IMG/VR virus record: IMGVR_UViG_3300014818_000023
Coordinates: 1 to 29,434 of that record
DNA: 29,434 nt
Reading direction: 5' to 3' (one strand)
Source: a virus
Lineage: Duplodnaviria > Caudoviricetes
Under the pieces are notes generated by a model that was given only the letters and a program-made list of their open reading frames with translations, was not told the origin of the DNA and did not search any database. Both the position numbers and the translations under genes were made by a program. This document shows, in pieces, positions 15,185 through 22,005 of the stretch (its first letter is position 1; each line of letters begins with the position of its first letter).

Positions 15185-15575
15185 TATAGTCTTCCTTTAC
15201 TGCTCTGCCGCCAATGCTAAAGGCAGCTAGTTCACCAGATTTGACCTTGGCCCAAACGTCATCGTTATATACTTTAAACGCGACGACCCAACCTTCTCGG
15301 TCACTCTGTATGCCAAGGGAGGAACCAATCTCTTTAGTGATCGGCATCGAGTGTATTACAGCCCCGATTTGTTCCCCTGTGTGCATTTCTTTACCTACAC
15401 GGACATGCTCCATAAACTTGTTTACGGCACGTACTAGCGTGTCAGGTTCGATTACATCGCCTTGGCGGTCTACTACAGGTTCACCCTTTTCGGTTACTAC
15501 TGAGGCCCAGCCATAGACCATGCGTTGTTCTTCATCAGTCTTTAATATCTGACCTGTTAAGTTCTTAGTACCCAT
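15177..15575 (-). CDS. prohead protease, XkdF-like
   Basis: VYGWA, D.QGD.I, EMH, W..VK.GEL..FSIGG motifs. Confidence 0.85.
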   Translation of the reverse strand: MGTKNLTGQILKTDEEQRMVYGWASVVTEKGEPVVDRQGDVIEPDTLVRAVNKFMEHVRVGKEMHTGEQIGAVIHSMPITKEIGSSLGIQSDREGWVVAFKVYNDDVWAKVKSGELAAFSIGGRAVKEDYNG

Positions 15576-15898
15576 TAGTCTAAGTCCTCCTTGATAATGA
15601 TTGTGAAGTAACCGTTGTTAGGGAACGTCTCTACTGTCGCATCCCCGTAGGTGACTTCGATCTCACCGTAGTAGGTACCAGCTGTGTCTGTGTCACCAGC
15701 TACCCAGTCGTACTTAACGACACCATTCACACCATCTATGATAGTTGCAGGAGCGTCGACCTTAAGTGAGGTTGCGCCAAAAGCCTTCATGTGAAAACGG
15801 GCAGAGGCACCTGCAAGTCCGATACCATTGCCATTGGCGTCTGTTAGAGTTACGGACAGCACAGGCCCAGTGTCGTTTGTTTTGATACGAAAAGCCAT
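15575..15898 (-). CDS. stand-alone BppU N-terminal-like (fibre anchor) domain protein
   Basis: IK.NDT.P.L...L.D, G.V.Y.W..GDT..AG.Y..E.EVTY.D...ETFP..GY..I.I signature. Confidence 0.75.
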   Translation of the reverse strand: MAFRIKTNDTGPVLSVTLTDANGNGIGLAGASARFHMKAFGATSLKVDAPATIIDGVNGVVKYDWVAGDTDTAGTYYGEIEVTYGDATVETFPNNGYFTIIIKEDLD

Positions 15899-17169
15899 TA
15901 GCCTACCTTAGCATTGTTGTTACTGTTGAATTGAACTGAGTTACCATTTACAACCTTTGCCCTACTGCCGATCCTTGTACTTCCTAAGTTAACCACACGG
16001 GCCAAGTTAGGGTTGTAGTAAGGTTCGCCCAACTGGTGCGCAGGCGAGATAAAGGCAGCAAACTCAAAGTTGTGGTCACCGATAAGGAGTGAAACACTTA
16101 CTTCGGCGGCACCTGTCTCTACGTCATTTGATGACAAGATGTGAGACTGATTTATAGCAGGGAACTGTAGTATAGTTGCCCCAAGCTGGACTTCTTCGGC
16201 GGATAACGTCTCTTCCTCAGATATGGAAAGTGTTGCTACCGAAACAGAACCAGTGGTTAGTGTACTGGGGGATAGTTTCTCGTCCTGAGCTATGTCAGTG
16301 TCGTGTAGTTCGTGTGGTTCGGATAGCAACTCTAAGGTAGCTACCTTTTCGTCTTGCTGGATGGCTACCTGTAAGACCTCTGGTACCCCAAGGGAAATAG
16401 GTACAGCACTCAGAGTTTCTTCCTCTGACATAGAGGTTGCGGCAGGTCCCCCACCAAGGAAAAGATAAGCAGTGGCACCTAAAGTCTGTGTTTGACCTAA
16501 AGAGGGTACATCTACTGTAGGGACGCCAAGGTTAAATCCTTGTATCCCCAGTTCCTCACCCTTGACCATCGGTACGTCTGGTACTTCTACCGAACCAACC
16601 TCTAAGTTACTACCGACTGACAGAATCTTTAGCTCTGTCATTGCAGTAGTAGAGTTCTCTGGGAAGGTGGTTTCAATGTCCCTAGCTGATAGGGTTTCTT
16701 CCTCTGAGATGTCTGTGTCGGGGAGATCGACAGAAGAGGCACTCAAGTCTACGGCGACAAGGGTTTGACCTTGATCTATAAGTGTGGTACCTAAGGTTGG
16801 GTCACCAAGACTTAGTGCAACAGAGGAAAGAACACTAACCTCAGTGAAATTAGTTTCTGGTATTACACAAGGGTCTGTATCAATATTACCAGAGGCAAAA
16901 GTCTCGTCCTCTTGAATGAGTGCAGTGGGCAATACGACAGATGCAGTATTAACGGTATTTGTATCTAGTGTCTGACCTTGGTTTAATGTAACCGTACCTA
17001 ATTCTGGAGTGCCAGAAGTGCCGAACAAAGCACCTAGTGTCTCTTCCTCTTGCATAGAAGTCGAGGACACAGTAGACGCACCAGTGGAAATGGAAACCGC
17101 AACTAAGTCAAACTCTGTCTCACCAAAGGATACGAAGGATGTAGATGCGAAAGGATTGTTACCAAACAT
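15898..17169 (-). CDS. acidic 23-residue-repeat protein; candidate fibre ruler/core
   Basis: AGGAG RBS. 17-aa leader MFGNNPFASTSF.., 16 repeats (15x23 + 1x24 aa) and a 37-aa basic tail sum exactly to 423 aa. Confidence 0.8.
   Translation of the reverse strand: MFGNNPFASTSFVSFGETEFDLVAVSISTGASTVSSTSMQEEETLGALFGTSGTPELGTVTLNQGQTLDTNTVNTASVVLPTALIQEDETFASGNIDTDPCVIPETNFTEVSVLSSVALSLGDPTLGTTLIDQGQTLVAVDLSASSVDLPDTDISEEETLSARDIETTFPENSTTAMTELKILSVGSNLEVGSVEVPDVPMVKGEELGIQGFNLGVPTVDVPSLGQTQTLGATAYLFLGGGPAATSMSEEETLSAVPISLGVPEVLQVAIQQDEKVATLELLSEPHELHDTDIAQDEKLSPSTLTTGSVSVATLSISEEETLSAEEVQLGATILQFPAINQSHILSSNDVETGAAEVSVSLLIGDHNFEFAAFISPAHQLGEPYYNPNLARVVNLGSTRIGSRAKVVNGNSVQFNSNNNAKVG
16012..17118 (-). 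repeat. 16 degenerate 69-bp (23-aa) coding repeats
   Basis: EEETL/QGQTL/QDEKL-type starts recur every 23 aa; hydrophobic residues mostly at repeat positions 5, 10, 17 and 22. Confidence 0.85.
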
Positions 17170-17306
17170 GTAGTTCTCCTAGTTATCGTCACCTTCGCAA
17201 CGTAGTCTTGTTGTGTATCTTTAAGGTCAGTAAAAGGGGTATCGGGACACTAGGTTAGCGAGGGGAACCTCTGTTGCCAACTCTCGTGCAGGGGGGATAT
17301 ACAAGA

Positions 17307-19751: not shown

Positions 19752-19781
19752 CGTCGTGTTCTCACTATTAGCTAAGGTTGA

Positions 19782-21623
19782 TTAGAAGGTTGCGTCTGTT
19801 TCTACGTCATTAGCGACAGACATTGTGCCACTTGAGTTCATACTAAACTTAGTCACACCTTGATATTGAAAGATAAGGCTTCCACCTGTCTCAGTAATAG
19901 TCCAGTCACCTAAGTCTACTGTAGGCACGTTAAGTGTCCCTGACATAGTGTCGCCAGCAAGTTGTACGTAGCGAGTATCGTGTGTGTGACTGTCGTTTAT
20001 CACTGTAGCAGTAATAGCAGCGTCAGCACTACCGTTGAAGGATACTGTACCTGTTACATCGCCAGATAAAGTAATGTTACGTGCCGTAAGAAGCTGTGAT
20101 GCGTTAGAGGCTGTACCTGTAAGGTTGCCAACTACGTTACCAATGACAGAGTTAACCTTGATGTCCCCGTAGGAGAATGAGGCGTGTGCTGTGTCGATAG
20201 CACCCTCTGGCTCTGGTGAATACGCATCAAAGAACGTCCAGAAGTTAGTAGATACATCGTAGTACATACCAATGTGGGTATAACCTACACCAGAAGTGCC
20301 AGTGTTGCGGTTAGATGCAATACCTGTGTCTACGTTAGTAGGGGAGGCTACACCAGACCATACATCATTCAGAGTGTGTCCAGTAACAGCGTTGAACTTT
20401 ACGTTTACGCCATCCTCAAGCTCTTGGTCGTTGCCTGTAATCTCAATCTCAGCAGACTGAGTGACAAAATCGTCAGTAGACCAACGGAAGTAGTCATCTT
20501 CTTGTGAGTGGCTAAGAGTTGTAATCTTTACCTTGAACGTCTTGTTACTGCTAGTACCCTTGTAGTGACCAGTGAACAAAGCGTCATCAAGACCCGTACC
20601 CGTGTGGGTAACGTCAGTAATAGTATCGCCAGAGTTAAAGTAGTTGAAAGAACCCGACAAAGAAATGTTGTTCGTGTTCGTGATGGTCTGCGTACCGTTA
20701 ACCGTTAGGTCACCGTCTACCGTTAGGTCCGCATCAAAGTGTGCGTTACCCTCAACCCGCATCGTCTTGAAACTCTCATGCGAGATGTCAACATAGATAC
20801 ACCCGTTTACACCGCTGATTAGGCAGATACCTACTTCTGTAGGGTAGTTAGGATACGTAGGAGAGTCTGTCTGAGTACCACCAGAGGCACCTACAGCAAC
20901 GTGTACAGGCACACCTACGGTTAGTGCAGATGTATCTACGTCAGCAATAAGACCACGAGTAGTAATATAACCTATAGAACTATTCTCAATGTCGTGAGTT
21001 GCAAGACCCACGGCCTGTGCTTGGCTGTATGTTCCGTCCGCCCTAGCGACAGCAATAGTTGGTGTAGCACCACTCTCGCCAGTTAGATAGACAGGAGTAC
21101 CGTTGGAAACAGTCGATCCTGTGTCGTTATAGACACGGATGTACTCTTCTTGCCCGATCTGGAGCGTAATGTCGCTCTCATCGTTGTAGAAAGCTAAAGC
21201 ACCGAAGGCTTTGTCATAGAATAAGCGACCCTCGGCGTAGGAAGGTTTATTAGCCTCGGTTGTGTGAACGTCTAGGTGTGTCTGTACTTCGGTACCATTA
21301 GTGTACCCATCGACATTCATGAGGACTGCTTTACTAGACGGCTGTGCGACAAAGATAAACTTAGTACCAGAAGTCCAATTAACTGCACTGTCCGCATTAG
21401 AGGACGAGAGGATGGTAGTACGTGCCAAAGTAGTTCCAGAGGCAGTGTAAGTACCAATACCCACTTCCCACTCAGCACCGTCAGTGCAAGAGTAGTAGGT
21501 CGTATTACCATCCCCAACAGAGGAGAACCCTTGAAAACCAGCTTCGGCACCTGCTAGTGTGTAAGTACCTGTACCAGTAGTTGTGGTAGATTCCTTCACA
21601 CGATCTTTAATAACAAGTGCCAT
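19782..21623 (-). CDS. multi-domain fibre protein (613 aa)
   Basis: N-terminal [17 protein letters not shown]...WEVG.GTY....LARTT domain; fibre motifs [37 protein letters not shown]-terminal [14 protein letters not shown] knob. Confidence 0.8.
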
Positions 21624-21633
21624 AGTTTATTCC

Positions 21634-22005
21634 TTAAACTGGGTCAGGGATGCCGATGTCAAATGTAGCAAGGGTAAATGTGTTACCGTTTGTTACAGAC
21701 TGTGAGGCTGTAAGGGCTGCTGTAGCCAACAAGCGAGAGTTAGCTGTGTCAACTAGCGCATAGTGAGTAACTGTGCCTGTACCTGTGATTGAACCGTCAG
21801 CAATAGCTGATACTGTAACCTTACGTCCGCCACCAGCGCGATCCGATGGAGCAGCGATGGATAGGGAAGTCGAGTTACCCAACGCATAGGTTGAGGTAGC
21901 CTCTGTGTAGTCAGTAGCCTCAGTAGAGGTTACATAGACTGCGTTAGCTTCTAAGTCAAGGATTGATAGTCCTTCGTCGAAAACGCGATCATTAAGATAT
22001 GCCAT
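21634..22005 (-). CDS. small beta-rich virion protein; candidate polymerising filament subunit
   Basis: 123 aa, Ala/Thr/Ser-rich, with G.ITGTGTVTHYALVD...RLL and Q.VT.GN.F.L..FDI.IPD motifs; TAATG-coupled to the portal gene. Confidence 0.65.
   Translation of the reverse strand: MAYLNDRVFDEGLSILDLEANAVYVTSTEATDYTEATSTYALGNSTSLSIAAPSDRAGGGRKVTVSAIADGSITGTGTVTHYALVDTANSRLLATAALTASQSVTNGNTFTLATFDIGIPDPV

Follow-up and report, generated by a model that had tools for sequence, protein, structure and literature searches.

Here we ask what a block of seven genes, lodged between the portal and prohead protease genes, builds in a phage whose tail module has a tip and a fibre of its own. The block lies in a window of 29,434 nucleotides (the whole stretch analysed, IMG/VR record IMGVR_UViG_3300014818_000023) from a relative of a marine roseobacter phage, and a first-pass annotation had read it as a candidate ruler-templated filament system. 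Our analysis suggests that it probably encodes a beads-on-a-rope fibre of the GP4/Bas63 type, with a DRVKE domain predicted at the tip and a BppU-like protein as the putative collar.

Organization of the gene block

The block comprises seven open reading frames, all on the minus strand (Table 1), and their sizes and order agree with the first-pass annotation. It is flanked by the portal (Portal_Mu, E 1.6e-27) and the protease (Peptidase_S78_2, E 1.1e-18) genes. The TAATG overlaps reported at both ends, from the portal gene to the 123-aa gene and from the 107-aa gene to the protease gene, are present, as is a third, from the rope gene to the 107-aa gene, that had been missed. Pfam matches uphold the Collagen, Peptidase_S74, and BppU_N labels, and the tail module does carry a separate J-like tip (892 aa) and Gly-rich fibre (381 aa).

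Table 1. Features of the block, in window coordinates
Feature	Position	Strand	Evidence or assignment
123-aa bead subunit	21634..22005	-	Divergent gp80/whisker fold (predicted); likely dimerises on rope
613-aa fibre, variable body behind DRVKE domain	19782..21623	-	PHROG tail fibre matches to E 2.5e-16
DRVKE domain, ~residues 1-99 of 613-aa fibre	21327..21623	-	Small beta-barrel; AF2 pLDDT 82.4
421-aa collagen-like fibre, C-terminal S74 chaperone	18486..19751	-	Pfam Collagen E 3.2e-25, Peptidase_S74 E 3.6e-7
218-aa candidate terminal adhesin, variable slot	17826..18482	-	phrog_26746 E 0.001
165-aa protein, variable slot	17307..17804	-	Possibly acetyltransferase-like enzyme; probably not fibre part
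423-aa rope (whole gene)	15898..17169	-	23-aa repeats
Rope residues 1-15, MFG..PF..F motif	17125..17169	-	Predicted seat in DRVKE trimer
Rope repeat region, ~16 acidic 23-aa units, residues 22 to ~390	16000..17106	-	Profile and autocorrelation
Rope C-terminal 37 aa, Asn-rich short strands	15901..16011	-	Putative anchor segment (sequence and charge)
107-aa stand-alone BppU_N Ig-like protein	15575..15898	-	Pfam BppU_N E 4.3e-7; putative collar/anchor

The 123-aa protein is predicted to have a whisker bead fold

The AF2 model of the 123-aa protein (pLDDT 95.7) was compared with solved structures, and the whiskers of Bas63 and Sf14 were the best matches in both Foldseek (9mt4 and 9c39, E 2e-4 to 8e-4, TM 0.60-0.67) and VIA (Sf14 9c39_K, Z 11.9, rmsd 2.4, 107 residues aligned, 17% identity). 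The next VIA match was 9rkv from phage 7-7-1 (Z 8.1), and GP4 gp80 gave Z 6.3 (rmsd 3.0, 96 aligned); a Bxb1 tail-tip chain (9d93_Ra, Z 6.2) and 6hhk (Foldseek E 0.41) were weak matches. At the sequence level a profile was required: a single-sequence PDB search returned nothing meaningful, while a 125-sequence profile reached 9c39_K at E 0.0017. Against Pfam PF23140 (Gp80) the protein scored 19.7 bits (E 1.1e-3), under the curated cut-off of 27 bits; among its relatives, 30 of 125 matched at E ≤ 0.01 (best E 2.9e-5), and hhalign against GP4 gp80 gave a probability of only 22%. The protein also had a weak match to phrog_240, labelled 'head protein'. On its predicted fold, with an N-terminal helix and an incomplete beta-sandwich, the bead is a divergent subfamily of the gp80/whisker fold, outside Pfam Gp80 membership. 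Its codon adaptation (0.64) is the highest outside four reference genes, a weak hint of high copy.

The rope carries a 23-residue period that tracks the bead type

The description of the 423-aa protein as a 23-mer repeat protein was confirmed: lag-23 autocorrelation was 0.10, whereas 500 shuffles peaked at -0.25, whatever the lag. A repeat profile trained without the window protein found 14 units, with a summed score of 274 compared with at most 11 in 200 shuffles, and one unit skipped in register (~230-252) plus one partial unit (368-390) bring the total to about 16. Homologous ropes have 6-26 units each; this repeat analysis excludes locus L082, whose rope escaped the ORF list or the profile. 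Charge is strongly partitioned along the window's rope, with 57 D/E and 5 K/R in residues 19-386 and 0 D/E and 5 K/R in the last 37 aa. The basic C-terminus noted earlier thus holds for the window's tail, but several homologous tails are not basic. A promoter-like site (10/12) before the rope gene was rejected as no commoner than chance, 11 such sites being found and 14.7 expected.

Hydrophobic residues are placed symmetrically in the repeat consensus (positions 13, 18, 24, and 29). Natural two-bead fusions (e.g., P0121 and P0131) were found among the bead homologues, an indirect hint of a dimer, and the unit on the rope is probably a dimer per repeat. The ratio of one dimer per repeat may not be strict, since the GP4 gene after gp80 has a period of 20 and ~11-12 units, whereas GP4 is reported, in the accounts consulted, with five resolved dimers.

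The genes of the block co-occur. Among bead loci with 6 kb or more of downstream sequence, 26 of 27 contained the rope, as did 19/19 of those with 8 kb or more. DRVKE was the next gene after the bead in 71 of 74 related loci, and a BppU-like gene directly followed 15 of 17 complete ropes; these counts come from related, partly redundant loci and are not independent events. Period also tracks subunit type: all 18 period-23 ropes accompany the window's bead type, and period 23 occurs in none of the 20 ropes from DRVKE-sampled loci with other small-subunit types. The earlier suggestion that a small subunit assembles on the repeat protein gains support from the fold match to solved bead-on-rope fibres and from the rope in 26 of 27 loci, and bead-rope binding, with its stoichiometry, is very likely. 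It is highly improbable that the repeat protein folds on itself as a solenoid or stalk beside an unrelated 123-aa decoration protein, a reading that draws on the phrog_240 label but faces the tight co-occurrence, the tracking of period with subunit type, and the incomplete sandwich of the bead, a fold known to require strand donation.

The rope N-terminus is predicted to seat in a DRVKE trimer

The first-pass annotation had proposed that the MFG..PF N-terminus of the rope binds the DRVKE domain. A predicted complex of a DRVKE trimer with the rope scored 0.91, compared with 0.01 for the best of 3 controls, although the job was unlike the tool calibration (own alignments, 3+1 chains) and the score could reflect resemblance to a GP4 complex already solved. 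The mark for a complex was reached by 116 of 157 solved pairs and by 2 of 215 mismatched pairs. At least 81% of contacts agreed between runs, partner pLDDT was at least 59, and the interface consisted of rope residues 1-15. The model makes it likely, and we hold this with good confidence, that these residues plug into the DRVKE trimer to form the tip joint.

The DRVKE domain itself has few relatives of known structure. Its best VIA match, 8jov_1, a 116-aa chain of the GP4 portal-tail complex, was weak (Z 6.3, rmsd 6.1, 81 aligned) and tied with unrelated barrels, and VIA gave no match at Z ≥ 8. Foldseek gave none at E ≤ 0.001, the GP4 portal-tail chain appearing at E 0.25; a PDB sequence search found nothing meaningful, and 30 Atlas matches had no Pfam family in common. 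A likeness to two GP4 fibre N-termini was visual only, unsupported by hhalign, and was set aside. Homologues of the 613-aa fibre range from 110 to 1313 aa and have only the N-domain in common. DRVKE motifs match ~12,000 IMG/VR stretches, and the domain is found in pelagi-, roseo-, and methylophilales phages that are in culture; the MFG..PF motif, for its part, recurs on ropes of 20-, 22-, and 23-aa period.

Among 77 loci sampled by DRVKE, a filter picked out MFG-type ropes in 20 and visual inspection in a further 9, and none matched the BppU-like profile (many of these loci are short). A bead gene was present in 66, but the seeds were drawn from the same loci, and only in 34 was the bead type backed by Pfam Gp80 or a profile; the MAITQ, MASLIY, MKDKVQ, and MAASY small-subunit types gave no Gp80 match. 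In loci L076 and L079, neither DRVKE nor BppU lies within 19-20 kb, and the rope has neither the MFG..PF start nor the usual tail. This rope carries a fused phrog_8198 domain, which in L053 and L075 is found by itself behind the BppU-like gene, and given that fusion a reading of the two loci as a clean minimal system was toned down. We lean slightly towards DRVKE being a universal tip adaptor, whose trimer would clamp MFG..PF rope starts and set exchangeable adhesin fibres on a template-measured chain of beads, giving a modular, long-reach second receptor arm, here at the neck of a siphophage-type virion.

The putative distal fibre genes and a variable enzyme slot

Gene order suggests that the collagen fibre is likely distal to the 613-aa fibre. 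The collagen is lysine-poor, with Gly-X-Lys in 2 of 53 triplets in the near-identical locus L001. Proline-free collagens occur among the examined loci. The 'gp38-like' label of the 218-aa gene could not be confirmed: there was no Pfam match and no meaningful PDB match, only the unknown PHROG family of Table 1. Matches to genes in 3 other loci involve only its first 40-50 aa, and its codon adaptation (0.40) is the lowest among 16 genes. The 165-aa protein had no homologue in the other fetched loci; its ESM Atlas neighbours (0.96) include Acetyltransf_1 in 1 of 30 clusters, on 20% of members, which is a lead only. Because the same slot holds enzyme genes in relatives (GT25/PLOD, 2OG oxygenase, and FkbM), the 165-aa gene is probably not structural and occupies a variable enzyme slot, contrary to the earlier view of all seven genes as structural.

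The fibre may be rooted at the neck by the BppU-like protein

Rope tails with an N-x-hydrophobic pattern comparable to the window's precede BppU-like genes, and it is fairly probable that the BppU-like protein anchors the rope C-terminus. A single-sequence PDB search with the 107-aa protein found nothing meaningful, no solved homologue, solved collars included, was found by sequence, and its profile had no significant match to a 93-aa candidate collar protein of GP4. A stand-alone homologue sits between terminase and portal in HGTV-1.

The first-pass annotation took gene position as a sign of head or neck attachment. Position varies, however: the block follows the portal in 50 of 80 loci; in 22 of 80, where the BppU-like partner is the same, it follows a J-like tail-tip gene, and in L046 and L078 a capsid gene. 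We therefore rejected position as proof of head attachment. By analogy with solved fibres we modestly favour the neck over the tail. The root of the same fibre could lie at the tail tip or baseplate, the BppU-like protein then having the role that its Pfam name implies; this is unlikely, the 22 loci, the weak Bxb1 tail-tip match, and the published descriptions of an A1002 rope starting at the nozzle and A511 beads on a baseplate wedge chain being set against a closest bead fold that is a neck whisker, the Ig-like collars described as holding the GP4 and Bas63 ropes, the 50 loci after the portal with L046 and L078, and the HGTV-1 homologue.

We consider it very unlikely that the DRVKE fibre chain forms an appendage of its own, docked on the collar like the GP4 short fibre II, and that the rope fibre ends blind. 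Fibre II is reportedly tulip-like and seated on the adaptor, and the best, weak fold match of DRVKE is to the GP4 portal-tail chain. The predicted DRVKE-rope complex argues against this arrangement, as do the 77 DRVKE-sampled loci, many of them short, where MFG-type ropes occur and the BppU-like profile has no match. There is very little chance, too, that the block encodes a capsid-vertex head filament that grips flagella, the reminiscence of phiCbK raised earlier, for which we found no supporting evidence. The block does lie in the head operon in the 50 portal loci, and up-facing whiskers and GP4 fibre I are described as contacting the capsid, but no head-filament protein was among the matches listed in any search, the block position is not fixed, and phage 7-7-1 has capsid fibres, yet the bead matches its tail-fibre entry 9RKV.

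Proposed assembly

In the beads-on-a-rope fibre that we favour, 123-aa dimers would thread onto the ~16 repeats of the 423-aa rope, each repeat donating strands that complete the incomplete beta-sandwich of a bead, as in the solved Bas63 and A1002 fibres. Repeat number would cap fibre length at perhaps ~45-125 nm. The first 15 rope residues are predicted to plug into the DRVKE trimer, and the BppU-like protein, probably as a collar at the head-tail neck, would grip the C-terminal tail. On the trimer, the 613-aa fibre, the collagen fibre, and the 218-aa tip would project outward and form an exchangeable arm for host binding, alongside the tip and fibre that the tail already has; the order of the distal fibres and the role in adsorption are part of this proposed model. 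If the DRVKE-MFG joint is real, three unannotated genes that are very common in marine and freshwater phages would acquire a function, their joint occurrence would be explained, and phages of dilute, slow-growing hosts would gain tens of nanometres of reach with swappable tips.

Comparison with known systems

The idea of a new kind of system does not stand, as the bead-on-rope or 'ruler' principle is already solved in GP4, Bas63/Sf14, A1002, and A511. In the literature searched, we found no description of a separate trimeric cap joining a rope to adhesin fibres; the GP4/VP1 primary papers and supplements, which fall outside that literature, could contain one. Beyond the papers cited here, that literature held no siphophage or marine account of the block or its tip.

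Fibre I of the Ralstonia podophage GP4 consists of gp80 dimers on a separately encoded rope with an Ig-like fibre-tail adaptor (PDB 8JOU and 8JOV; PMC12609058, PMC13730344), and, like the window, GP4 encodes its bead, its periodic rope, and a small Ig-like protein in genes of their own. The window differs in its period of 23 and ~16 units, in a divergent bead below the Pfam cut-off, in siphophage-type tail genes, and in a predicted adhesin-bearing cap at the rope N-terminus, of which the GP4 accounts searched make no mention. The closest bead fold is that of the felixounavirus Bas63/Sf14 whisker-collar (9MT4, 9C39), described from cryo-EM as dimers on a rope that runs N-terminally from an Ig-like neck collar (PMC12609058), with whisker gp5 numbered near portal gp3. 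There, as described, rope and collar are a fusion that bears two dimers and has no distal fibre, whereas in the window the Ig-like protein is distinct from the rope, which is ~8 times longer. In the Pseudomonas podophage A1002, 11 dimers are reported to assemble by beta-sheet augmentation on a rope with its C-terminus anchored and its N-terminus distal (PMC13730344), which we calculate as ~20-30 rope residues per dimer. A1002 differs, as described, in that its rope is part of the nozzle protein, its beads are of two types, and the rope contains an Ig-like domain in place of the separate trimeric cap predicted for the window. A511 gp105 and T4 gp8 (BW3TFN) and the garland proteins of Milano and 7-7-1 (PMC10811340, PMC12796354) also place dimers on an extended chain, but, according to the accounts consulted, at the baseplate, with chains of three dimers or without an identified string, and on contractile tails; 6hhk and 9rkv, the weak fold matches of the bead noted above, belong to this group.

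A close counterpart is gp62-gp56 of the Roseobacter phage CRP-6 (MK613348; PMC6918029), in the same order between portal and protease. Its bead and 107-aa Ig-like protein are 88% and 83% identical to those of the window, its rope has 422 aa, and the DRVKE and collagen fibres are present; a chaperone and a GT25-PLOD gene stand at the site of the window's 218-aa and 165-aa genes. These core genes are annotated, in the record consulted, merely as hypothetical or putative tail fibre. Since CRP-6 is cultured and contains the core genes, the proposed model can be tested in this phage.

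Conservation of the fibre module

The seven-gene block is a genuine, conserved gene module for a known type of fibre in which small subunits (beads, here probably the 123-aa protein) assemble on an extended repeat protein (the rope, here probably the 423-aa protein). In the window record, which is linear, 29.4 kb long and about 65% complete, it lies in a minus-strand operon running from terminase and portal through the seven genes to protease, scaffold, cement, capsid, neck genes and tube, and on to a 564-aa tape measure, Dit, hub, J-like tip and Gly-rich fibre. Gene sizes, gene order and TAATG overlaps all match those of the first-pass annotation, and an additional, third TAATG overlap couples the rope gene to that of the 107-aa, BppU_N-like protein. 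The core block and its position are shared by the closest cultured phage, Roseobacter phage CRP-6. PMC6918029 reports CRP-6 as a short-tailed podovirus, which contrasts with its tape measure annotation.

To follow the module across loci, 80 of 133 confirmed bead loci were taken in; these, like all loci sampled, are related to each other, so that the counts are not independent. DRVKE, the N-terminal domain of the 613-aa fibre, is encoded by the next gene after the bead in 71 of the 74 bead loci that extend 400 bp or more beyond the bead. Of the loci extending 6 kb or more, 26/27 have a rope further on, as do 19/19 of those extending 8 kb or more, and a BppU-like gene stands directly 3' of 15 of 17 complete ropes. 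In the remaining two (L076 and L079), 19-20 kb contain no BppU-like gene and no DRVKE, and the rope starts differently and carries a fused domain at its C-terminus. From the DRVKE side, ~12,000 matching IMG/VR stretches are estimated; 80 of at least 587 confirmed were sampled, 77 of them new. A Gp80-type or 123-aa-type gene was confirmed in 34 of these 77, and 32 more hold similar-sized genes that are presumed to be beads. The 20 ropes detected there have a period of 20 (16 ropes) or 22 (4) and never 23; every one of the 18 period-23 ropes that came through the same filter occurs with the window's bead type.

Bead and rope

The Pfam Gp80 match of the bead fell below cut-off; a 125-sequence profile reached Sf14 chain 9c39_K (E 0.0017). 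The bead model (pLDDT 95.7) had the Bas63 and Sf14 whiskers as top Foldseek matches, and the VIA ranking likewise placed whiskers (Z 11.9, rmsd 2.4, 107 aligned) above a 7-7-1 entry (8.1) and GP4 gp80 (6.3). The earlier proposal of a small subunit assembling on repeats is thus supported by fold; solved fibres use bead dimers on a rope, and the mechanism is therefore one already described. Large extra domains are fused to bead domains in P0129, P0146, P0152, P0181, P0193, P0203, P0241 and P0264, P0146 starting with an MFG-like motif followed by two beads; given such fusions, beads may themselves display adhesins.

The 23-aa periodicity of the rope is far stronger than in shuffled sequences, and the rope comprises a 21-aa head, ~16 acidic units and a 37-aa tail devoid of acidic residues. 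Homologous ropes have 6 to 26 units, nearly always spaced by 23. We infer one bead dimer per repeat because A1002 uses ~20-30 rope residues per dimer (our own arithmetic), because two-bead fusions occur naturally, and because the hydrophobic pattern of the 23-mer is symmetric; each rope would therefore carry ~32 beads. The fibre would measure from 45 nm, packed as in A1002, to 125 nm with the rope fully extended. The GP4 period-20 gene, probably the GP4 rope, has ~11-12 units against five reported dimers, which speaks against a strict ruler.

A number of period-20/22 ropes end in three to five Trp repeats, ~10-12 aa apart, where others have the Asn-rich tail, which suggests a second type of anchor. 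The split rope of L070 could reflect a frameshift, an assembly error or recoding. Two different bead genes adjoin in L082, recalling the two-bead fibre of A1002; its 508-aa gene, annotated 'ribonuclease E', reads as a rope that combines an N-terminal domain with repeats of two types and a tail of Trp repeats.

Coordinates of features in the window and in related loci
Feature	Location	Details
Tail layout, siphophage-type	window 2103-11345	same in CRP-6 (L163, gp39-gp47: tape measure and tail structural gene annotations)
Protease gene	window 15177-15575	only 132 aa; relatives 229-310 aa, protease part plus fused extra segment
Enzyme slot	window 17307-17804	no GT25/PLOD-GT/2OG-oxygenase match in the record
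Tandem repeats	window 28609-28736	imperfect, 19/63 bp, GACCCCCCCGATGGAAAAT-type unit, close to contig end; possibly origin or regulatory array
GT25 + PLOD-GT + 2OG-oxygenase protein	L013 8826-10586; L081 (CRP-6 gp58) 10130-11899; others	LH3 E 3e-29; mimivirus R699 E 6e-18
Split rope	L070 14474-15139 and 15102-16553	overlapping frames, 8 + 17 units
Two bead genes and 508-aa rope-like gene	L082 4852-8591	Octadecabacter Antarctic DB virus 2
Ropes with Trp-repeat ends		L092, L120, L124, L131, L137, L143, L158 and others

A predicted tip adaptor

DRVKE was modelled as a small beta-barrel (pLDDT 82.4) with weak structural matches, the best being a GP4 portal-tail chain (Z 6.3). The predicted complex of three DRVKE copies and residues 1-36 of the rope received a score of 0.91 (best control 0.01), a mark attained by 116/157 solved and 2/215 mismatched pairs, although the job is unlike the tool's calibration and the score may echo a solved GP4 complex. 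Contact agreement between runs was at least 81% and partner pLDDT at least 59. The suggested meeting of the rope N-terminus with DRVKE was thus borne out in prediction, which supports binding of rope residues 1-15 to a DRVKE trimer, each copy of which would contribute residues 5-10, 45, 54 and 91-96. The rope-start motif, which recurs across rope types, has three aromatic residues at five-residue spacing, and this would fit one aromatic per protomer. The BppU-like profile matched 0/77 DRVKE-side loci, many of them short; MFG-type ropes and DRVKE occur together in loci lacking that match, so DRVKE appears to follow the rope start and not the anchor. No description of such an adaptor was found in the literature searched, most subscription papers and supplements being outside its scope, and this predicted adaptor is the part of the module most worth pursuing.

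Variable middle genes

Relatives differ in the 613-aa body, the collagen fibre and the 218-aa gene; the putative order of these parts in the virion is taken from gene order only, and the 'gp38-like' label of the 218-aa gene was not confirmed. The 165-aa gene has no homologue among the fetched loci; its slot elsewhere holds modifying enzymes, and an acetyltransferase may be considered as a weak lead. A GT25/PLOD-GT/2OG-oxygenase protein is present in the block of 19/20 loci with a collagen fibre and 0/8 without. The sole exception, L001, is near-identical to the window, and its collagen has Gly-X-Lys in 2 of 53 triplets versus 18-45 of 80-149 elsewhere, suggesting a joint loss of the enzyme and the lysine sites. 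No phage description of such an enzyme was found by title or abstract.

Attachment and comparison with known fibres

Head or neck attachment had been proposed from gene position. The gene before the block is the portal in 50/80 loci and a J-like tail-tip gene in 22/80, and in L046 and L078 it is that of the capsid; since this neighbour varies, position is not firm evidence of the site. By analogy we lean towards the neck, because an Ig-like partner is present in two solved systems and both are collars; the main rival, attachment at the tail tip, would suit the loci with a preceding tail-tip gene. The 107-aa protein, the candidate anchor of the rope, had no significant match to the GP4 93-aa gene. 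For the suggested phiCbK-like head filament, no support was found.

The neck fibre of A-1(L) is of a different design, with stacked trimers (PMC10966104). PMC10811340 widens the fold range to A511 gp105, T4 gp8 and the Milano garland. According to PMC12609058, whisker dimers with incomplete sandwiches wrap a rope that completes these sandwiches and runs N-terminally out of an Ig-like neck collar; in GP4 the rope is a protein of its own, which interlocks with the GP4 collar. The A1002 fibre, as described in PMC13730344, has a C-terminally anchored rope of ~300 Å carrying 11 dimers.
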